Shown one piece after another: positions 3 to 16,100 of a DNA stretch of 16,100 bases (position 1 is the first letter of the stretch; each line of letters begins with the position of its first letter). Location of the stretch: UHGV virus genome UHGV-0340572, one strand, 5' to 3'. The position numbers were made by a program, and so were the translations under genes. The notes beneath the pieces are model-generated. The model ran no database searches. It was not told the origin of the DNA and saw only the letters and a program-made list of their open reading frames with translations. The stretch is from a virus.

Positions 3-245
3 ATGGCAGAGATTATTCCCATGACTGAAGAACAGAAATTCCAGCTAGAGATTTACAAACTGGTCATGAACCAGAACGCAGCCGCAGAGGAAGCATTTCA
101 GTTCATTGGCACTGACGAACTGAAGCTTGAGCTATTCAAAATTCACTTCCAGTCAGGCGGCGCTAATTCAGATATCACGACCCGCACTATCGAAGCGGTG
201 CGTAAATCGAAGGAAGCGTTAGACCTGTTCACTACCGGAGCATGA
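3..245 (+). CDS. hypothetical small protein, 80 aa as read; may be 5'-truncated by the window edge
   Basis: ATG at 3 with only 2 nt upstream, so the true start cannot be seen. Its TGA stop (243-245) lies 1 nt before the ATG of the next ORF, suggesting co-transcription and translational coupling. Charged, helix-like composition; no family recognised. Confidence 0.45.
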   Translation: MAEIIPMTEEQKFQLEIYKLVMNQNAAAEEAFQFIGTDELKLELFKIHFQSGGANSDITTRTIEAVRKSKEALDLFTTGA

Positions 246-246
246 T

Positions 247-735
247 ATGACCACTATTGCATGGGATGGAAAGACCCTGGCATCTGACACCCAGGCATCA
301 TCTGGTGATGTTGTGTGTTCGTATACAGAACAAAAGATTTACACACCGCCAGAATCTGGGTGGGAGGTTTGCGGCAGTAAAGTGGTTGCATTAGGTTGTT
401 CTGGTGATTGCGGCGCTGAGATGGAATTGCAGGAACTGCTTAAGAATAACCTGACGTATGCATCAGAATTTCTCCCGACATTCTCTTTCACAGCGCTTGC
501 TATCATTGGTGCTGGTCGTGCTTACATCATCTCAAAAGAGAAAGGCGAAACGCGGGCGAGTATTTCGCTACAGGTTGAACCTTACGCCATTGGTAGTGGT
601 GGGCTGATTGCTCGCACTGCCATGCACTGTGGCAAAAATGCGAGAGAAGCGGTACAAGTCGCAATTGATCTTGACTGCTATTCCGGCGGCAGTGTTGATT
701 CGTTCCCCGCTGGGAAGCAAACAGAAGGGAAATAA
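247..735 (+). CDS. proteasome beta / HslV-like N-terminal-nucleophile (Ntn) hydrolase family protein, 162 aa
   Basis: Translation begins [20 protein letters not shown], matching the Thr1...D17 N-terminal motif of proteasome beta/HslV subunits; a Lys in QKIY sits at the equivalent of HslV Lys33; C-terminal AIGSGG matches the conserved GSGG loop (HslV has AIGSGG). RBS GGAG at 237-240, 6 nt before the ATG. Comparison is from memory of E. coli HslV and proteasome beta sequences. Confidence 0.65.
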
Positions 736-740
736 TCAAT

Positions 741-1229
741 ATGGCAGCACCAAAGGGCAACCGATTTTGGGAGGCCCGCAGTAGTCATGGGCGAAATCCT
801 AAATTCGAATCGCCTGAGGCGCTGTGGGCTGCTTGTTGTGAATACTTCGAGTGGGCTGATGATAACCCACTATGGGAGGGTAAGGTATTTTCATATCAGG
901 GAGAAATAATTAAGGCTAATGTCCCTAAGATGCGAGCCATGACTATTTCAGGATTGTGTACCTTCCTTGATATCACCAGGCAAACATGGGGAACCTTCCG
1001 GTCAATGGAAGGTTTTTCTGACGTCACATCACGAGCGGAAGACATCATCTACGACCAGAAATTCTCTGGCGCAGCCGCTGACCTTCTCAACGCTAACATC
1101 ATCGCCCGTGATTTGGGCCTTAAAGAGCAGTCGCAAGTTGAAGACGTGACACCTGATAAGGGAGATCGCGATAAGCGGCGCTCTCGTATCAAGGAGCTAT
1201 TCAACCGTGGAACTGGACGCGATTCTTGA
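741..1229 (+). CDS. 3: terminase small subunit (P22 gp3-like), 162 aa
   Basis: Translation [38 protein letters not shown]... and C-terminus ...[16 protein letters not shown] match my recollection of P22 gp3 (162 aa); sits immediately upstream of and overlapping the large terminase gene. Confidence 0.92.
1008..1029 (+). other. candidate pac (packaging initiation) site inside the terminase small subunit gene
   Basis: GAAGGTTTTTCTGACGTCACAT, encoding EGFSDVT, lies at the same codon position (about 89-96) as the 22-bp P22 pac site, which I recall as GAAGACTTATCTGAGGTCGTTA encoding EDLSEVV; 14 of 22 positions are identical. Contains the perfect 8-bp palindrome TGACGTCA at 1019-1026. Confidence 0.45.
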
Positions 1230-2706
1230 TAACCTGAGCGACGAAGAGCAAATCGAATTGCTCGAGCTACTCGAAGAAGAAGAGAACTACCGGAACACAC
1301 ACCTGCTATATGAATTTACGCCATACAGCAAACAGCGTGAGTTCATCGACGCCGGGCATGACTATCCAGAGCGCTGTTTTATGGCTGGTAACCAGCTTGG
1401 TAAGTCATTTACTGGTGCTGCTGAAGTCGCGTTTCACCTTACCGGGCGTTATCCGGGCACAAAAGGCTATCCTGCTGATGGTAAATATGGCGGTGAGTGG
1501 AAAGGTAAGCGTTTCTATGAGCCTGTTGTCTTCTGGATTGGTGGAGAGACAAACGAGACTGTAACCAAAACGACTCAACGCATCCTGTGCGGTCGTATCG
1601 AAGAGAATGATGAGCCTGGCTACGGTTCCATACCGAAAGAAGACATCATTAGCTGGAAGAAGTCTCCTTTCTTTCCGAACCTTGTTGATCATCTTCTGGT
1701 TAAGCATCACACGGCTGATGGCGTTGAAGATGGCATTTCAATCTGCTACTTCAAACCATACTCGCAAGGCCGTGCTCGCTGGCAGGGTGACACAATCCAC
1801 GGCGTGTGGTTTGACGAAGAACCACCATATAGCATATATGGTGAAGGCCTTACCCGTACCAACAAATACGGGCAATTCTCAATTCTGACGTTTACCCCTC
1901 TGATGGGGATGTCTGACGTTGTTACCAAGTTCCTGAAGAATCCCAGCAAGTCGCAGAAAGTGGTCAACATGACCATCTACGACGCTGAGCACTATACCGA
2001 CGAGCAGAAAGAGCAAATCATCGCATCTTATCCTGAGCATGAGAGAGAGGCGCGTGCTCGCGGTATTCCTACGATGGGTAGTGGTCGAATCTTCCAGATA
2101 CCGGAAGAGACGATTAAGTGTCAGCCGTTCGAGTGCCCTGATCACTTCTACGTAATTGGCGGGATGGATTTCGGATGGGATCACCCACAGGCGCAGGTTC
2201 AGCTTTGGTGGGATAAGGACGCAGACACAATCTACGTTTCACGCGTGTGGAAGGCGAAAGAAAAAACAGCTGTTCAGGCATGGGGAGCTGTTAAATCATG
2301 GGCGCATAAAGTGCCAACCGCATGGCCTCATGACGGAAACCAGCACGAGAAGGGCGGCGGTGAGCAGCTCAAAGGGCAGTATGCAGACGCTGGATTTATG
2401 ATGTTGCAGGATCATGCGACATGGCCTGATGGCGGTAATGCTGTTGAGCCTGGAATCACTGAATTGCGCGACATGATGCTTGATGGTCGCTTCAAAGTAT
2501 TCAACACCTGTGAGCCATTCTTTGAGGAGTTCCGCCTCTATCACCGTGATGAAAACGGGAAAATCGTCAAGCTTAACGACGACGTGCTATCCGCCGTTCG
2601 CTATGCATACATGATGCGCCGCTTCGCAAAAATGATGCGCGACATCAAAAAACCAAAAGAGAAAAAGATACCAGCCCCAATCAGGCCCATCGCACGGAGA
2701 ACTTAA
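1207..2706 (+). CDS. 2: terminase large subunit (P22 gp2-like), 499 aa
   Basis: Long ORF whose length matches P22 gp2 (499 aa). The start as given by the ORF track is a GTG at 1207, overlapping the end of gene 3 by 23 nt; no in-frame ATG occurs for about 58 codons downstream. Confidence 0.93.
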
Positions 2707-4872
2707 ATGGCCGACGAAAACAGACTCAATTCCATTCTGTGTAAGTTTGACGCAGACTGGATGGCGAGCGATGAAGCCAGAACCGAGGCGACAAATGACC
2801 TGTATTTTAGCCGAGTGTCGCAATGGGATGACTGGCTATCAAACTACACCACCCTGCAATATCGCGGACAATTTGATGTTGTTCGCCCGGTGGTCAGGAA
2901 GCTGGTCGCAGAGATGCGCCGGAACCCTATCGACGTTCTATTCAGACCAAAAGACGGAGCTAATCCTGATGCTGCCGATGTGCTGATGGGGATGTATCGT
3001 ACTGATATGCGCCATAACACGGCAAAAATTGCCGTTAACGTTGGCGTTCGTGAGCAGATAGAGTCTGGCGTTGGCGCATGGCGTCTGGTCACGCAGTACG
3101 AAGACAACGACCCAACAAGCAACAATCAGGTAATCCGACGCCTTCCAATCCATGAAGCCTGCTCACACGTCATATGGGACGCCAACAGCAAGCAGATGGA
3201 TAAGAGCGACGCTAAGCACTGCACGGTGATTAACGCCTTGTCACGCAATGGCTGGAAAGAGTTCGCAGAGGATTACGGTATTGATCCGGATACCTTGCCA
3301 TCTTTCCAGAATCCGAACGATACATGGCTGTTTCCGTGGGTATCGAATGATGTCGTCTACGTCGCTGAGTATTACGAGGTAGAAGAGAAGAAGGAGAAAG
3401 TCTTCATCTACCGCGACCCGCTGACAGGTGAGCCGGTCAGCTATTACCAGCAGGATATCAAAGACGTCATCGACGACCTGGCTAATCGTGGATTCATTAA
3501 GGTAGCAGAGCGTAAGGTCAAGCGTCGGCGTGTGTATAAGTCGATCATCACCTGCACGCAGATACTGAAAGACCGCGAGAAGATAGCCGGAGAGCATATC
3601 CCAATCGTTCCTGTGTACGGCGAATGGTCATTCGCTGGTGACAAGGAGTGCTACGAAGGTGTGGTAAGGCTGACGAAAGACGGTCAACGCCTTCGTAACA
3701 TGATCATGTCATTCAACGCCGATATTGTTGCTCGTTCACCGAAGAAGAAACCGACCTTCTTTCCTGAGCAAATCGAAGGCTACGAATACATGTACGGTGG
3801 AAATGATGACTATCCGTACTATTTGCAGAACAAGACCGATGAAAACGGTAATGACCTGCCGATTGGTCCAATCTCCTACATGGAAAACCCTGAAGTGCCG
3901 CAAGCCAACGCTTACATGCTTGAGGCTGCCACCAACGCAGTGAAAGAGGTGGCTAGTCTTGGCGTGGATGCGCAGGCGGCAAATGGTCAGGTCGCTTTCG
4001 ATACCGTCAATCAACTGAACATGCGGGCAGACCTTGAGACATACGTGTTTCAGGATAACCTGGCTACCGCAATGCGACGTGATGGCGAGATTTATGCCTC
4101 AATGGTCAATGATATTTATGACGTTCCTCGTCATGTAACGCTGACACTTGAAGATGGAAGCGAGAAAGACGTTCAACTCTATGCGCAAGTTGTCGATTAC
4201 CAGTCCGGCAATGTGGTCACACTCAACGACATTCGCGGTCGCTATGAGTGCTATACAGACGTTGGACCATCCTTCCAGAGCATGAAGGAACAGAATCGCG
4301 CAGAGATTCAGGAGTTGCTAACAAAGGTTCCGCAAGGTACTCCAGAGTTCCAGATGCTGATGCTGCAATACTTCACGCTGCTTGACGGTAAAGGCGTCGA
4401 GATGATGCGAGAGTACGCGAACAAGCAACTGGTGATGATGGGGCTGAAGAAACCAGAAACACCTGAAGAGATGGAGATGGTACAGCAGGCTCAACAGCAG
4501 CCGCAGCAGCCATCAGCAGAGCAAATTCAGGCTCAGGGTATCCTTCTGCAAGGTCAGGCTGAATTGCTCAAGGCAGAGAACCAACAGGCGCAGATTCAGG
4601 TTGAAGCCGCCAAGGTTGAAGCCCAAAACCAACTCAACGCCGCGAAGATTGCAGAAATCTTCAACAATATGGACCTCGACAAGCAGGCAGAACTGCGTGA
4701 GTACCTCAAGCTCGTAGGTCAATTCCAGCAACAGCGCAGCAAAGACGCTCGCGCTAACGCTGAGCTGCTTCTTAAAGATGCAGACCAGACTCATTCACAA
4801 CGCATGGATTTCGCGAATCTTATGCGTCAAGTTCAAATCCCCTCCGGCGGAGTAGCCGAGACACCTCAATAA
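2707..4872 (+). CDS. 1: portal protein (P22 gp1-like), 721 aa
   Basis: ATG directly follows the TAA stop of gene 2. Size (721 aa vs about 725 in P22), N-terminus [28 protein letters not shown] and a Gln-rich helical C-terminal extension are typical of the P22 portal. Confidence 0.93.
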
Positions 4873-7851: not shown

Positions 7852-9269
7852 TGCCGATTCAGCAACTTCCGCTTATGAAAGGTGTCGGCAAAGACTTTCG
7901 AAACGCCGACTATATCGACTATCTGCCAGTGAATATGTTGGCTACACCAAAAGAAATCCTGAACAGCAGCGGATATCTTCGCTCATTCCCGGGCATTGCC
8001 AAACGTTCTGATGTAAACGGCGTATCGCGCGGAGTCGAGTACAACATGGCGCAGAATGCTGTTTATCGCGTGTGTGGTGGCAAGTTGTATAAGGGCGAAA
8101 GTGAAGTCGGCGATGTTGCCGGAAGTGGTCGTGTATCATTGGCTCATGGTCGGACATCACAGGCTGTAGGCGTTAATGGTCAACTGGTCGAGTATCGCTA
8201 TGATGGCACGGTTAAAACCGTCTCAAACTGGCCTACAGACAGCGGATTCACACAGTACGAGTTAGGCTCAGTCCGCGACATTACGCGCTTACGTGGCCGT
8301 TATGCGTGGTCAAAAGACGGCACTGATTCATGGTTTATCACTGACCTTGAAGACGAATCACATCCTGACCGATACAGCGCACAATATCGCGCAGAATCGC
8401 AGCCTGACGGCATCATCGGCATCGGAACATGGCGAGACTTCATCGTCTGTTTTGGTTCATCTACGATTGAGTATTTTTCCCTGACTGGTGCAACCACCGT
8501 TGGTGCCGCTTTGTATGTCGCCCAGCCATCGTTGATGGTGCAAAAAGGAATCGCCGGAACCTACTGCAAAACGCAGTTTTCTGATTCCTATGCGTTCATC
8601 AGCAATCCGGCAACAGGTGCTCCGTCTGTATACATCATCGGCTCCGGTCAGGTATCACCAATCGCCAGCGCGAGCATTGAGAAAATACTACGCTCCTACA
8701 CTGCTGATGAACTGGCTGATGGCGTGATGGAATCGTTGCGGTTTGATGCTCATGAGTTGCTGATTATTCACCTGCCGCGCCATGTTCTTGTTTACGACGC
8801 ATCTTCAAGCGCCAATGGTCCGCAATGGTGTGTGTTGAAAACAGGCCTGTATGACGATGTGTACCGCGCTATCGACTTCATTTACGAAGGCAATCAGATA
8901 ACGTGCGGCGATAAGCTGGAGTCCGTGACCGGGAAATTGCAATTCGACATCAGCAGCCAGTACGACAAGCAACAGGAACACCTGCTGTTTACTCCACTGT
9001 TCAAAGCGGATAACGCCAGAGTTTTCGACCTTGAGGTTGAATCGTCAACTGGCGTTGCGCAGTATGCTGACCGCCTTTTTCTCTCTGCAACCACTGACGG
9101 CATCAATTACGGGCGTGAGCAGATGATTGAGCAGAATGAACCGTTCGTTTACGACAAACGCGTTTTGTGGAAGCGAGTAGGGCGCATCAGGAAAAATGTC
9201 GGCTTCAAATTGCGCGTTATCACGAAGTCACCTGTCACTCTGTCTGGCTGCCAGATAAGGATTGAGTAA
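7851..9269 (+). CDS. 10: tail hub protein (P22 gp10-like), 472 aa
   Basis: 472 aa, the same as P22 gp10; start overlaps the gp4 stop (TAATG); conserved gene order 4-10-26. Confidence 0.9.
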
Positions 9270-10117
9270 TGGCGGATTCGAATCTCAATGTGCCGGTAAT
9301 CATCCAGGCTACGCGGCTCGACACATCAGTCCTTCCACGCAATATCTTCTCGCAGTCATATCTGCTGTACGTTATCGCACAGGGTACTGATGTTGGTAAC
9401 GTGGCGAACAAGGCCAACGAGGCCGGACAGGGCGCTTATGATGCACAGGTCAGAAACGATGAGCAGGATGTGATTCTCGCTGACCATGAGCAGCGAATTT
9501 CTGCTGCGGAAGCAACGCTTGTTAATCATGAGGAGCGAATCAGCCAGGCAGAATCAACTCTTCAGGAACATGAAACACGAATAGCTCAGAATGAAAGCGA
9601 TATTGCGTCGCTTGATACCAGAGTTCAGTCGCTGGAATCGCAGGTTTCAGACCATGAAACGCGCATCGATGCTCTGAAGTATGCCACTACTCGCAAGAAG
9701 TCAGAGGTTGTTTACTCTGGCGTATCTGTAACCATCCCGACAGCGCCGACCAACCTTGTTAGCCTACTGAAAACGCTCACGCCGTCATCCGGCACGTTGG
9801 CACCATTCTTCGACACCGTTAACAACAAGATGGTTGTGTTCAACGAGAACAAAACCTTGTTCTTCAAGCTGTCGATCGTCGGGACGTGGCCCAGCGGAAC
9901 CGCAAACAGGTCAATGCAGCTAACATTTTCCGGTTCTGTTCCTGACACACTGGTAAGCAGTCGCAACTCGGCGACAACAACCGACAACATCCTGTTAGCT
10001 ACGTTCTTCAGCGTGGATAAAGACGGCTTTCTTGCCACAAATGGCAGTACGTTAACCATTCAGTCAAATGGGGCGGCGTTTACTGCCACAACCATCAAAA
10101 TCATTGCGGAGCAGTGA
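9269..10117 (+). CDS. 26: tail needle protein (gp26-like) with C-terminal knob extension, 282 aa
   Basis: N-terminus [43 protein letters not shown] closely resembles the P22 gp26 N-terminus as I recall it, followed by a coiled-coil segment with repeated HExRI motifs. At 282 aa it is about 50 residues longer than P22 gp26 (233 aa), with a beta-rich C-terminal domain, as in Sf6-type needles. Confidence 0.85.
9482..9691 (+). repeat. 42-nt (14-codon) periodic repeat in the needle coiled-coil region
   Basis: Units beginning at 9482 (DHEQRIS), 9524 (NHEERIS), 9566 (EHETRIA) and 9650 (DHETRID) are spaced 42, 42 and 84 nt apart; imperfect at the nucleotide level. Confidence 0.55.
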
Positions 10118-14751: not shown

Positions 14752-15012
14752 TTAGTTGCTGTCTTTTTTATATAGCTCCTTGAGCGTATCAAAGACAATT
14801 TTCTTAACCATATCAGATTGTTGTTCTGCCATACGCTCTGCATCGTCAATGTAAACTGATGCAGAGCTTTGTTTATCCAATGATTCCTCAATCGCTGCAA
14901 TTATCTCTGAGTTCAGCGACCTGTTATTCATCTTCGCACGCTGCTTAATTTTCGCGTGAAGTTCATGCGGAAGTCTCAAGTGAAACTGCGCCTCGTCGTA
15001 TTTGCTGTACAT
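14752..15012 (-). CDS. mnt: Mnt-like ribbon-helix-helix repressor, 86 aa
   Basis: The track ORF (14752-15510, -) is over-extended across the tailspike start. From the internal ATG at 15012 the protein MYSKYDEAQFHLRLPHELHAKIKQRAKMNNRSLNSEIIAAIEESL...DDAERMAEQQSDMVKKIVFDTLKELYKK matches P22 Mnt as I recall it (HFNFRMPMEVREKLKFRAEANGRSMNSELLQIVQDAL...NDAERLADEQSELVKKMVFDTLKDLYKK). GAGG lies 8 nt upstream on the - strand. Confidence 0.8.
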   Translation of the reverse strand: MYSKYDEAQFHLRLPHELHAKIKQRAKMNNRSLNSEIIAAIEESLDKQSSASVYIDDAERMAEQQSDMVKKIVFDTLKELYKKDSN

Positions 15013-15147
15013 CCTTGATGCCTCACCAGTTGGGTGGAATGGCATCGTAAAACCTACTGTACAAATCAACAATCGTACCGTTTCGGTATGCAACAAACAC
15101 CAACCGTAGCCACGCTGCGGCGATTCCTTGTATCTGGAGCAAATTAA
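15013..15147. promoter_or_regulatory. divergent intergenic region between mnt and tailspike; probable promoter/operator region
   Basis: 135-bp non-coding gap between divergently oriented genes. Contains the inverted repeat TACCG-TTT-CGGTA (15076-15088), the palindromic hexamer TGTACA (15058-15063) and the imperfect 17-bp palindrome CCGTAGCCACGCTGCGG (15103-15119). I could not pick out convincing -35/-10 hexamers by eye. Confidence 0.4.
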
Positions 15148-16100
15148 ATGACAGACATTACAGCCAATGTGATTGTATCGATGCCTTCGCAACTCTTCAC
15201 TATGGCGCGTTCTTTTAAAGCTGTAGCCAATGGCAAAATTTATATCGGTAAAATTGACACTGACCCTGTAAATCCAGAAAACCAGATTCAGGTTTATGTG
15301 GAGAACGAAGACGGCTCTCACGTTCCTGTTTCGCAACCAATCATCATTAATGCTGCTGGATATCCGGTATATAACGGACAGATTGCCAAATTCGTAACTG
15401 AGCAAGGCCATTCTATGGCTGTATATGATGCGTATGGCACGCAGCAGTTCTATTTCCCTAATGTGCTGAAGTACGACCCTGATCAATTTGAGATTAGGCT
15501 TTCTAATCAAGACGGCGCTGGTCTTGTTGGGATTATGCCATATGGCACGGTACAGGATGCCATCAAATGGGTTGTCCCCGAGGTATTCCCCGGAAGTAAT
15601 GCGTCAGAAAAATTACAGGCAGCTGTAAATTATGCGGTTGCAAACAAAACGAGAGTTGTAGCATCAGGTGTGTACGATGTAACGGCCCCCGTCACCATCC
15701 CAGGAGACATCATTATCGATGCTTCTACTGGAGAATTTACCTTCAATGGCATTGATTATATTTTCCATCCGCTTGGCGCAAAATCAGTAGAGATTATCGG
15801 TGGTAAGTTCACCGCAAATGCATACCACACCCAGCGTCCTCAGGTAATTTTCAATGATTACCCTGATGGGCTGGCGAATTTGCCAACGCGAGTGGTGATA
15901 AAAGATATGCAATGCTTTAACTGCGGTGTTGGCTACATCATGGTTAACTGTCAGGACCCAACCAGCGTACATGTCTCAGTTGATAATAACTACTGCAAGA
16001 CTGATGACAACACAGATCAGTATATCTCTGATGCAGGAATGTCAGGTGAACAGGGTGAGGTATATCCATATCTGATGATTCTTGGCAACACGACTGCATC
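15148..16100 (+). CDS. 9: tailspike protein, 5' portion (truncated at window end); P22-type N-terminal head-binding domain with a different receptor-binding domain
   Basis: ATG at 15148 with GGAG 9 nt upstream. Translation MTDITANVIVSMPSQLFTMARSFKAVANGKIYIGKIDTDPVNPENQIQVY...NVLKYDPDQF matches the conserved P22-family tailspike head-binding domain. After about residue 113 the sequence (IRLSNQDGAGLVGIMPYGTVQDAIKWV...) no longer resembles P22 gp9 as I recall it. Open to the window end, so absent from the ORF track. Confidence 0.85.
   Translation, partial: MTDITANVIVSMPSQLFTMARSFKAVANGKIYIGKIDTDPVNPENQIQVYVENEDGSHVPVSQPIIINAAGYPVYNGQIAKFVTEQGHSMAVYDAYGTQQFYFPNVLKYDPDQFEIRLSNQDGAGLVGIMPYGTVQDAIKWVVPEVFPGSNASEKLQAAVNYAVANKTRVVASGVYDVTAPVTIPGDIIIDASTGEFTFNGIDYIFHPLGAKSVEIIGGKFTANAYHTQRPQVIFNDYPDGLANLPTRVVIKDMQCFNCGVGYIMVNCQDPTSVHVSVDNNYCKTDDNTDQYISDAGMSGEQGEVYPYLMILGNTTA

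Follow-up and report, generated by a model that had tools for sequence, protein, structure and literature searches.

A predicted HslV-like peptidase gene as the probable cargo of an exchangeable slot behind orf80 in a P22-like late operon

The window analysed here, a stretch of 16,100 nucleotides from the virus genome UHGV-0340572, opens with two genes separated by a single nucleotide: a homologue of orf80 and a gene for a short HslV-like protein. The best explanation for this arrangement, to which we assign a probability of roughly 80%, is that it belongs to a P22-like late operon in which orf80 is a resident gene and the HslV-like gene is an exchangeable slot cargo, independent of ORF80. An earlier note on the same DNA had read the two genes as a translationally coupled cassette whose products may work together. 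A dedicated two-gene cassette is not supported, as mutual co-occurrence and a pair-specific order or junction are both absent. The features on which the argument turns are the following.

Positions 3 to 245, plus strand: upstream ORF, the orf80 homologue (80 codons, 80 aa, TGA stop at 243-245; Pfam DUF2560, PHROG 571).
Positions 237 to 240, plus strand: GGAG Shine-Dalgarno motif for the HslV-like gene, within the Thr-Gly-Ala tail codons of ORF80.
Positions 243 to 249, plus strand: stop/1 nt/start junction (TGA T ATG), the left mosaic breakpoint of the slot.
Positions 247 to 735, plus strand: downstream ORF, the HslV/proteasome-beta-like Ntn hydrolase gene (162 codons, ATG 247-249, TAA 733-735).
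Positions 715 to 740, plus strand: right mosaic junction, comprising the last ~7 codons of the HslV-like gene (KQTEGK and stop) and a 5-nt spacer.
Positions 741 to 1229, plus strand: small terminase subunit gene of the P22 gp3 type, the right boundary of the slot.

In the model we propose, the region would represent the end of the lysis-to-packaging gap in the late operon of a P22-like (Lederbergvirus-type) phage or prophage. Here, P22-like phages would carry orf80 (DUF2560) as a conserved and apparently dispensable resident, a gene whose last codons (Thr-Gly-Ala-stop) would provide the GGAG as a ribosome-binding site for whichever gene comes next and whose stop codon would form a main boundary for recombination. 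Between orf80 and the small-terminase gene there would then be a variable slot for accessory late genes, filled in this case by a rare cargo, the gene for a short N-terminal-threonine hydrolase of the proteasome-beta/HslV kind. This gene would be co-transcribed late with the terminase and head genes, and its product is likely to be translated independently from the ATG at 247, since a free threonine is needed after removal of the methionine.

The geometry described in the earlier note proved accurate: the orf80 stop is followed by one nucleotide and then by the ATG at 247, and the GGAG does lie inside the end of the upstream ORF. The motif is separated from the ATG by a 6-nt spacer and, because a GGAG ending 5-11 nt upstream is found at only 2.3% of window positions, represents a credible ribosome-binding site, which we infer is used by the HslV-like gene. 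Tight spacing of this kind is generic for this late operon: 11 of 13 gene junctions in it fall between -23 and +13 nt, and the portal, gp10-like and gp7-like genes likewise have a GGAG 6-7 nt upstream, embedded in the preceding gene. The small-terminase product that follows matches Pfam GP3_package (8.3e-31) and PHROG 606 (3.5e-71), and no plus-strand sigma-70-like promoter or convincing terminator was found between the orf80, HslV-like and small-terminase genes. The proposal that the two products are made together therefore stands, in that both genes lie in a late operon of the P22 type, no signals were found between them, and the predicted ribosome-binding site of the second is inside the first; homology to P22 and the absence of consensus signals support their probable late co-transcription. 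An RNA hairpin that masks the start codon and so makes translational coupling obligatory was also considered and is unsupported: the junction RNA shows no more structure than shuffled sequence does (z = +1.2 to +1.5).

The upstream ORF is complete and is a standard gene of P22-like phages. It scores 147.7 bits against PF10834 (DUF2560; cut-off 25), covering profile positions 1-72 of 72, matches PHROG 571 at 2.3e-41, and is the same 243-nt gene as ORF80 of phage P22 (AAF75061), with 98.8-100% amino-acid identity to the homologues in P22, HK620, Sf6 and epsilon34. The window begins 2 nt 5' of its true ATG. E. coli ET729 carries a near-identical prophage, whose small-terminase gene is annotated as incomplete; there, an in-frame stop lies four codons upstream of orf80, orf80 is preceded by its own GGAG at a distance of 6 nt, and the preceding gene ends 103 nt away. 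The full DUF2560 coverage, the equal length of the P22 gene and the upstream in-frame stop in relatives refute the suggestion that the ORF is 5'-truncated by the window and, with it, the suggestion that the cassette may be larger. In P22, E212, UPF_BP1 and the ET729 prophage, orf80 has the same position, with the lysis genes on one side and the small-terminase gene on the other. Database versions of ORF80 of 102-129 aa also exist, and these are probably upstream start calls; among the loci examined, the frame is open far upstream with alternative starts only in L008, most having a stop four codons upstream.

ORF80 is highly conserved as a protein. Its close relatives are 97.1-98.8% identical at the nucleotide level and 100% at the amino-acid level, all differences being synonymous, and across the family there are 19-21 invariant residues, a mean column identity of 75-80% and a nearly invariant Gly79. 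The AF2 model (pLDDT 78) contains four helices and predicts a small four-helix protein; a fold search gave no match (best E = 2.8) and so no function to propose from structure, and a sequence search of the PDB returned nothing significant. PADLOC defence-system models matched neither ORF80, nor the HslV-like protein, nor four other proteins of the lysis-to-terminase gap. In the searchable literature, the function of DUF2560/orf80 is touched on only by annotations, by work on the neighbouring pid locus, a moron directly upstream of orf80 in P22 (PMC3573128), and by an orf25-orf80 deletion: a P22 prophage carrying it, which may or may not lose the whole of orf80, yields viable phage (PMC11016777).

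Calling the downstream product peptidase-like was well founded. It matches PHROG 1040 ("peptidase HslV family") with E = 3.2e-37 over residues 1-159, its profile finds HslV (4hnz, 1.5e-9) and proteasome beta (3h4p, 4.3e-9) in the PDB, and hhalign aligns that profile to E. coli HslV with 94.5% probability. The AF2 model (pLDDT 95) adopts an alpha-beta-beta-alpha Ntn sandwich, and its best 50 Foldseek matches in the PDB are all proteasome beta, HslV or BPH (E about 1e-6, TMq 0.53-0.69). Profile and fold searches were needed for this assignment, because no PDB chain was matched significantly by the single sequence. Furthermore, no Pfam family was found at E <= 1, Proteasome (PF00227) included, no NCBIfam HslV or proteasome-beta equivalog was matched, the score against TIGR03634 being 14.8 bits (cut-off 224), and a precomputed PF00227 match is present in only 1 of 99 homologues. 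The predicted active-site elements are placed as follows.

Positions 250 to 252, plus strand: codon for Thr2, which aligns with Thr1 of E. coli HslV and would become the catalytic N-terminal threonine once Met is removed.
Positions 286 to 288, plus strand: codon for Asp14, the predicted equivalent of HslV/proteasome Asp17; invariant, and aligned with the Asp of the HslV GDGQ motif.
Positions 334 to 336, plus strand: codon for Lys30, the predicted Lys33 equivalent; invariant, and aligned with HslV Lys33.
Positions 592 to 600, plus strand: codons for Gly116-Ser117-Gly118, the predicted equivalent of the HslV AIGSGG active-site loop in the Ser129 region; G116 and G118 are invariant.

All 37 homologues compared, which reach down to 30% identity, keep the pair M1-T2, nearly all of the best 150 matches from a representative search align from residue 1, and the 16-residue spacing from Asp to Lys is common to this protein and HslV. 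Met removal would expose Thr2. Judged by sequence and model, the protein is a short member of the proteasome-beta/HslV superfamily of MEROPS T1-like Ntn hydrolases with a complete predicted active site, and would probably be an active threonine peptidase whose targets late in infection are proteins of the host or the phage. In the model, the central strands have a single helix (57-66) between them and one face is without one of the two helices. Residues 159-162 have a pLDDT below 50, and the KQTEGK tail is missing from most family members.

It is conceivable that such a protein is not autonomous, and that it either forms a hybrid protease with host HslU or titrates HslU/HslV and thereby protects a phage protein. 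The homology to HslV with active-site residues kept would suit either role, as would the finding that no hslU-like gene adjoins the HslV-like gene in any context examined; jumbo-phage HslV-like genes, for which no HslU was detected (PMC7823757), provide a parallel. Nevertheless, the ~17 residues that form the second helix of HslV have no counterpart here, other indels are present and TM-scores to HslV are modest at about 0.55-0.69, which makes it doubtful that the HslU docking surface would be retained. In addition, the very large size of the family, with 8,849 clusters at 50% identity (E <= 1e-10) in phages of many hosts, favours a self-contained activity, and the strictly invariant catalytic residues argue against a pure decoy. 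Dependence on the host system is consequently an unlikely explanation.

No functional study of the phage HslV-like family was found in the searchable literature, where it is represented by annotations only. As a tentative suggestion, these miniature, propeptide-less, H2-less proteasome-like threonine peptidases may serve many phages by degrading specific host proteins late in infection, either self-assembled or assisted by a host ATPase. Their targets could include factors of defence or of the stress response that are set off by the phage's terminase, portal or capsid proteins.

Evidence for an exchangeable cargo comes from what follows orf80 elsewhere. Among named phages, P22 (204 nt) and E212 (79 nt) have an empty slot and UPF_BP1 has dec there; its slot gene starts with MANPNF, which matches the sequenced Dec N-terminus of epsilon34 gene 71 (PMC2629481). 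The latter is the rightmost gene and adjoins the small-terminase gene (PMC2629481). We then took a census of 80 viral contigs whose ORF80 is 99-100% identical at the protein level. At +1 to +3 nt, orf80 is followed by a phrog_309 small terminase in 22, a 63-aa phrog_3546 ORF in 17, a 129-aa phrog_1365 ORF in three, Dec in two and the HslV-like gene in two; the other 34 of the 80 have a short gap and then the terminase gene. The GGAG-bearing tail of ORF80 is kept in relatives regardless of the following gene, and in one locus (L005) an unrelated 129-aa gene stands behind the same TGA-t-ATG junction at +1 spacing. Both edges of the slot can be recognised, as most E. coli matches to the region stop at query position 240-243 and, at the right junction, the 3' end of the HslV-like gene and the 5-nt spacer are common to the 3' end of a 23-codon mini-ORF in the "empty" slot of E212.

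This location also bears on a possible role for the HslV-like protein in packaging or head assembly, as a processing or quality-control protease acting on terminase, portal, scaffold or capsid proteins or as a virion-associated protein, its partner then lying downstream and not upstream. In enterobacterial lambdoid contexts the HslV-like gene is usually the last, or nearly the last, before the small-terminase gene, be this of the gp3, Sf6 or Terminase_2 type. In Erwinia phage Gungnir39 it lies between the head-tail adaptor and head-closure genes, in locus L018 it abuts the major capsid gene, and two other cargos found in the lysis-to-terminase gap serve to decorate the capsid (Dec and a Hoc-like Ig protein). 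The same position is, however, a general cargo slot. To our knowledge, P22-like phages assemble their heads without any protease, and the vast majority of them carry no HslV-like gene. Distant family members are also found in unrelated contexts, namely a jedunavirus tail-gene island, upstream of the holins of phage Ivi, and as gene 1 of SPN3US. A packaging function thus seems improbable, and exchangeable cargo remains the preferred reading of the gene's position.

Were ORF80 and the HslV-like protein a true functional pair, with ORF80 as a regulator, inhibitor, gate or assembly factor and coupling setting their stoichiometry, each gene would be expected to track the other. Within P22-like phages there is some sign of this. 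Most P22-like loci with the HslV-like gene show +1 or +2 nt adjacency, and a diverged lineage of the pair (DUF2560 40-48%, HslV-like 69-80% identity) keeps the TGA-n-ATG junction. Across the 30 viral loci with both genes, the identity of one gene to its window copy rises and falls with that of the other (Spearman rho 0.87), which together with the diverged lineage indicates that the adjacency is old within P22-like phages. The two genes remain neighbours even where their order is reversed (L051 and L059).

Counts across genomes point the other way. Among 5,426 complete E. coli genomes, the HslV-like gene is present in only 10, whereas 1,184 match the region, mostly through ORF80; ORF80 is about 50-100 times commoner without the HslV-like gene than with it, and lacks this partner in about 98-99% of cases. 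Viewed from the other gene, DUF2560 is present in 30 of 80 HslV-like viral loci and absent from 50. (A smaller neighbourhood sample had suggested that the HslV-like gene occurs mostly without DUF2560; the larger viral-contig set gives these 30 of 80 with it.) Of 71 loci scored for backbone, DUF2560 is found in 22 P22-like and six non-P22-like loci, and the 43 without it comprise three P22-like and 40 non-P22-like loci. The association is therefore a lineage effect of P22-like phages: given the HslV-like gene and a P22-like backbone, DUF2560 is present in about 88-90%, which does not exceed the rough base rate, as 13 of 15 gp3-terminase rows among the E. coli matches also match ORF80. The check on co-occurrence that the earlier note had called for accordingly gives a one-sided result with no mutual pairing.

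Individual loci tell the same story. Sibling alleles L058 and L059 differ in the presence of DUF2560, and the DUF2560 gene of E. coli X14-3 has an annotated frameshift beside an intact HslV-like gene. The order is inverted in L051 and L059, and another gene separates the two in Dewey-type loci and in L056; in Dewey, the only phage record with an HslV-like homologue above 60% identity, this is a 95-aa gene. Nucleotide identities to the window copies can also part company, at 80.7% for ORF80 and 99.4% for the HslV-like gene in L020, and at 97.1% and 86.1%, respectively, in Dewey. Near-identical ORF80 precedes at least four other gene families or the terminase at the same 1-3 nt, identical ORF80 being coupled in like manner to unrelated genes such as dec, and the idea that the two products work together is left unsupported; we regard a functional pair as quite unlikely. 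As a counter-case, the earlier note had considered that the upstream ORF might be the end of a lysis-region gene with no co-occurrence with its neighbour: the ORF is no lysis-gene fragment, but co-occurrence did prove one-sided and explained by lineage.

That orf80 is mainly a translational leader, delivering ribosomes to a variable downstream gene while its own protein matters little, is very improbable: the GGAG-bearing tail and 1-3 nt junction kept whatever gene follows, and the viable orf25-orf80 deletion, would suit such a role, but the strong protein conservation and purely synonymous differences described above contradict it, and a downstream site in unstructured junction RNA should be accessible without upstream translation.

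These results carry a cautionary message, as a 1-nt gap and an embedded Shine-Dalgarno motif in a packed phage late operon are no sign of functional partnership. If our model is correct, orf80 offers at its 3' end a general docking site at which accessory late genes (dec, small ORFs, the peptidase-like gene) are exchanged and expressed, and the slot would offer a concrete, well-delimited case of boundary mosaic exchange that preserves translation signals. The wider interest lies in the HslV-like cargo itself, a member of a very large phage family that keeps a complete predicted threonine-protease active site. The prophage of E. coli MS 115-1 has the same ORF80, HslV-like and terminase arrangement and may provide an accessible strain for asking what phages gain from a miniature proteasome-like enzyme.

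Comparison with known systems places both genes. In protein terms there is no substantive difference between the ORF80 of the window and P22 ORF80, HK620 hkbM or the Sf6 and epsilon34 homologues; in P22 itself, orf80 is followed by a 204-nt gap with an unannotated 63-aa ORF and no peptidase-like gene. A close analogue of the HslV-like gene in genomic terms is dec (phages L, epsilon34 and ST64T), which fills the same slot from 2 nt beyond the ORF80 stop almost to the small-terminase gene. Each is an accessory late gene, present in some P22-like phages and missing from others. The proteins themselves are unrelated: Dec, an OB-fold capsid binder (PMC6449081), has a known virion role, whereas the HslV-like protein is enzyme-like in its fold and has no role assigned to it.

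The HslV-like gene also resembles a lambdoid moron, such as pid of P22, in sitting where close relatives have nothing or something else. Morons have their own promoter and terminator and are often transcribed independently of the late operon; unlike them, the HslV-like gene has flanking gaps of 1 nt and 5 nt, which leave no room for either signal. A classical moron or compositional outlier is accordingly unsupported, with no promoter or terminator found and a GC content that does not deviate.

Bacterial HslV (ClpQ; E. coli 1e94/1g4a, T. brucei 4hnz) has the same Ntn alpha-beta-beta-alpha fold as the HslV-like protein. Both are propeptide-less with an MTT... N-terminus, and equivalents of Thr1, Asp17, Lys33 and Gly-Ser-Gly are common to both. 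Identity to HslV chains is only about 17-21% in Foldseek structural alignments, and HslV has ~175 aa with H1 and H2, compared with 162 aa and no second helix in the window protein. The family as a whole is about 15-40 residues shorter than HslV, most of the best matches having 136-170 aa, and unlike bacterial HslV the gene is phage-encoded with no hslU partner gene. BPH (5ovs/5ovt) and Anbu are, like the HslV-like protein, proteasome-beta-like subunits with no ATPase of their own. The structural matches include BPH, whose sequence match is weak (E about 3e-5, partial region); BPH has about 200 aa and is chromosomal, where the HslV-like protein is shorter and phage-borne. The nearest known relatives are the PHROG 1040 proteins of other phages (SPN3US gp1, phage EL, Klebsiella jedunaviruses, Erwinia Gungnir39 and Escherichia phage Dewey; 33-91% identity), whose genes are short and propeptide-less like the window copy and lie in widely varying genomic contexts.

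The window is the late region of a P22-like phage or prophage, and it opens with two small genes ahead of the terminase genes:

3-245, plus strand, 80-aa ORF (orf80)
247-735, plus strand, 162-aa ORF (the HslV-like gene)
741-1229, plus strand, small terminase (Pfam GP3_package, PHROG 606)
1207-2706, plus strand, large terminase
2707-4872, plus strand, portal
after the portal, plus strand, scaffold, coat, head-completion and ejection proteins

The earlier note had observed that the first two genes abut, and this is confirmed: the coordinates are exact (TGA 243-245, ATG 247-249), with GGAG at 237-240 inside the last codons of ORF80 and the ATG 6 nt further on. Over its first 1,300 nt the window shares 99.3% identity with an Escherichia coli ET729 prophage; for prophages of E. 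coli MS 115-1 and of the '0H' isolates the figure is 97.8-98.2%. The arrangement of ORF80, HslV-like gene and terminase is already in public, annotated genomes, and the finding is therefore of low to moderate interest. The order is the same in the MS 115-1 prophage (match H92, NZ_CP146665.1 3234302-3235601; 98.2% identity); this strain, a model in CBASS defence studies, could be a practical system for tests of the HslV-like gene. The small-terminase gene is annotated as incomplete in ET729 (L004:4741-5079), the closest relative of the window, and is intact in the window.

Further downstream, the tail-needle gene (9269-10117) encodes 282 aa with a full-length match to the 'tail needle knob' family phrog_1030 (2.5e-135), and the 'tail needle protein' profile phrog_1219 (233 positions) matches residues 1-145 only; the needle is knobbed and longer than that profile. 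Beyond the ejection-protein genes lies a minus-strand ORF of 252 codons (14752-15510), whose C-terminal ~100 residues match PHROGs labeled Arc-like DNA-binding and 'partition protein ATPase' (phrog_795, 4.8e-39). Its N-terminal ~150 residues are without any match, so the TTG that opens the longest ORF may lie too far upstream.

The suspicion that the upstream ORF is 5'-truncated proved wrong. ORF80 scores 147.7 bits with Pfam DUF2560 (cut-off 25) in an end-to-end match, from profile position 1 to 72 of 72, and is the same 243-nt gene as P22 ORF80, HK620 hkbM and the Sf6 and epsilon34 homologues, with 98.8-100% amino acid identity. The gene before orf80 in ET729 ends 103 nt away from it; an in-frame stop lies four codons 5' of the orf80 ATG there and in five of the seven other loci examined, and GGAG stands 6 nt upstream of the ATG in all eight. 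The window therefore starts 2 nt before the true orf80 ATG. Relatives at 97.1-98.8% nucleotide identity encode a 100% identical protein and the DUF2560 family has 19-21 invariant residues; by these patterns the protein is under purifying selection. The predicted structure of ORF80 is small, with four helices (pLDDT 78); Foldseek found no structural relative for it (best E = 2.8), and the literature found gives no function. In P22 the pid moron lies directly upstream of orf80 (PMC3573128), and viable phage was still made from a P22 prophage deleted for orf25-orf80, a deletion that may not take all of orf80 (PMC11016777).

The stretch between the orf80 stop and the small-terminase gene, here called the slot, is where P22-like phages diverge. 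In a base-level comparison, homology between the window and other P22-like phages ends exactly after the ORF80 stop and resumes ~25 nt 5' of the small-terminase ATG, so that the last seven codons of the HslV-like gene (KQTEGK*) are common with a 23-codon mini-ORF of phage E212. When the 1,192 E. coli records with a match were sampled at even spacing, most matches stopped at query 240-243, the ORF80 stop, and the slot spans came in at least six sizes.

Slot contents in individual loci
P22: 204 nt
E212: 79 nt ('empty')
UPF_BP1: 134-aa gene starting 2 nt past the ORF80 stop, product beginning MANPNF
E. coli GPEC349-628: unrelated 129-aa gene with the same TGA-t-ATG junction
Phage Dewey: HslV-like gene (91% identical), separated from ORF80 by a 95-aa gene

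Followers of orf80 in 80 viral contigs with 99-100% identical ORF80 protein (gene start 1-3 nt past the stop)
Small terminase, phrog_309: 22/80
63-aa ORF, phrog_3546: 17/80
129-aa ORF, phrog_1365: 3/80
Dec, phrog_3018: 2/80
HslV-like gene: 2/80
Short gaps, then gp3-type or Sf6-type terminase genes: 34/80

The 3' end of orf80 thus serves as a common docking point at which late genes are exchanged, the HslV-like gene being a rare occupant. The start of the UPF_BP1 gene matches the N-terminus ANPNF reported for the capsid decoration protein Dec, gene 71 of epsilon34, whose homologues come out rightmost when the genome map is cut at the small-terminase gene (PMC2629481). Capsid decoration genes of two kinds occupy the lysis-to-terminase gap, Dec and a Hoc-like Ig protein; the latter (154 aa) lies between the HslV-like and small-terminase genes of a Citrobacter prophage (L008:4475-4939). 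The slot is best described as a site for accessory late genes rather than lysogenic-conversion morons, since there is no room for separate signals and the GC content is ordinary (48.9% vs 49.9%).

Several smaller features were seen in and around the slot. The E212 mini-ORF (L002:2748-2819; MATQGFDNPSKFRDEWDKQAEGK*) starts 2 nt past the ORF80 stop, and 5 nt separate its end from the small-terminase ATG. The HslV-like ORF borrows the final codons of the mini-ORF for its C-terminal tail (window 715-735), and most of the mini-ORF persists 3' of the 129-aa gene of GPEC349-628. The 204-nt gap of P22 (AF217253) holds a candidate unannotated 63-codon ORF (L001:2747-2938, the end computed from the ORF length and not from the P22 sequence) with a GTG 1 nt past the ORF80 stop, a homologue of the phrog_3546 follower in 17 of the 80 contigs. 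The 129-aa phrog_1365 protein (L005:1747-2136 in GPEC349-628; locus L144 and relatives) carries an HExxH-like motif, HECAH, and has no Pfam or PADLOC match; it may be a second, unrelated peptidase-like occupant. Fragments of orf80 itself form scars in other lambdoid phages (e.g., HK97 NC_002167 38957-39040): in the HK97, HK544, HK75, HK446, HK106 and mEp records its first 27-28 codons persist at 92-96% identity, mostly without annotation, and its last 31 codons lie in phage CurroJimenez_Bas106 (38441-38533) under a gene annotated 'Rha-like transcriptional regulator'. Such scars are consistent with a recombination hot spot at orf80. In E. coli X14-3 (L021:2258-2499) the DUF2560 gene is annotated as frameshifted and the neighboring HslV-like gene is intact.

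That the two products are made together is well supported by the anatomy, which points to a common transcript and to a ribosome-binding site within orf80 from which the second gene would be translated. No plus-strand promoter or convincing terminator was found between the three genes. The junction is nevertheless generic: 11 of 13 junctions in this operon fall between -23 and +13 nt, several have GGAG embedded in the preceding gene, and RNA structure at the junction is not above expectation (z = +1.2 to +1.5).

The further proposal, that the products work together as a dedicated functional cassette, is not supported, as the followers vary and co-occurrence is one-sided and follows phage lineage. 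ORF80 is usually without the HslV-like gene: among 5,426 complete E. coli genomes, 10 have the HslV-like gene, six being serial isolates of one strain, and 1,184 match the region, mostly via ORF80; in the phage collection DUF2560 is matched in 178 records and a close HslV-like homologue is found in one (Dewey). From the other side, DUF2560 is present in 30 of 80 viral loci with HslV-like relatives (27-99% identity), all within the 44 at ≥41% HslV-like identity. As this exceeded a first small sample, we tested for a lineage effect in loci with at least 3.5 kb downstream, scoring by whether the portal or large terminase is P22-like. DUF2560 accompanied the HslV-like gene in 22 P22-like loci and was absent from 3, and was present in 6 and absent from 40 of those not so scored. 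Most of these six have PBSX-type large terminases, and siblings of several score as P22-like. On P22-like backbones, ~88-90% of loci with the HslV-like gene also have DUF2560, which does not exceed a rough base rate: in the E. coli sample, 13 of 15 gp3-terminase rows match ORF80 as well.

Individual loci add exceptions. Two (L051, L059) have the order HslV-like gene, DUF2560, small terminase, and a sibling allele of the second (L058) is without DUF2560, as is a locus with 90% HslV-like identity (L038); in L056 and in loci of the Dewey type another gene separates the two. Nucleotide identities to ORF80 and the HslV-like gene are 80.7% and 99.4% in locus L020 and 97.1% and 86.1% in Dewey, and by this comparison divergence is decoupled in these cases. 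On the other side, the two genes' identities correlate over 30 paired loci (Spearman rho 0.87), and a diverged lineage (DUF2560 40-48%, HslV-like 69-80%) keeps the same TGA-n-ATG junction, so adjacency is old inside P22-like phages. This is as predicted from linkage on a common backbone; a lineage-specific functional link between ORF80 and the HslV-like gene, though unlikely, is also compatible with the genomic evidence.

An unrelated match lies inside the small-terminase gene. A 107-nt patch (window 1008-1114), with GGAAGACATCATCT inside it and within the portion of the gene that carries the pac site in P22, matches at 86-92% identity a stretch annotated in 'ash family protein' genes of many E. 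coli chromosomes (e.g., L185:5001-5107); such rows make up 13 of the 60 drawn at even spacing from the 1,192 records. Strain 18SZHZ655Rt has the patch in antisense orientation inside ash, on an island of ~9 kb adjoining yicC that also encodes an integrase, an HTH regulator, AntA/B and a DUF5906 primase-like protein. The island resembles a phage satellite that bears a segment of a P22-like terminase gene, perhaps as a packaging-site mimic.

The HslV-like gene is found in varied settings. In enterobacterial lambdoid prophages it occupies the gap between lysis and small-terminase genes, and often the small-terminase gene, of gp3, Sf6 or Terminase_2 type, is the next one along. Elsewhere it lies among head-tail connector genes (Gungnir39), beside the major capsid gene (locus L018), in a small island among tail genes (jedunavirus), upstream of holins (phage Ivi) or as gene 1 (SPN3US). 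No hslU-like gene adjoins it in any context examined, and a jumbo-phage paper likewise remarks on HslV-like genes without hslU (PMC7823757).

The 162-aa product is a short hydrolase of proteasome/HslV-like type. It goes unrecognized by Pfam and NCBIfam, and a single-sequence search of the PDB gave no match; its PHROG is 1040, 'peptidase HslV family' (E = 3.2e-37), and a 37-sequence profile reaches HslV (4hnz, 1.5e-9) and proteasome beta (3h4p, 4.3e-9). The AlphaFold model is confident (pLDDT 95), and all of its top 50 Foldseek PDB matches are proteasome beta, HslV or BPH chains (TMq 0.53-0.69); the fold is common to dozens of viral proteins, mostly 'uncharacterized'. A propeptide-less N-terminal-nucleophile enzyme requires its own initiation codon and Met removal, so we infer that initiation at ATG 247 is independent and that an ORF80 fusion would not be the active form. 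An exhaustive profile search returned 8,849 clusters (50% identity) at E ≤ 1e-10; among the best 150 matches nearly all are 136-170 aa and align from the first residue, and canonical HslV is estimated from scaled profile bit scores to fall well below this threshold. The literature found holds annotations and no functional study of these phage proteins, and the residual interest lies in this large, functionally uncharacterized family. The cargo is most likely a threonine peptidase acting late in infection. M1-T2, D14, K30, G53 and G116/G118 are invariant in the family down to 30% identity, and in a profile alignment the conserved residues coincide with Thr1, Asp17, Lys33 and the AIGSGG loop of what we take to be the E. 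coli HslV sequence, which differs from the phage protein in carrying ~17 extra residues at the second helix.
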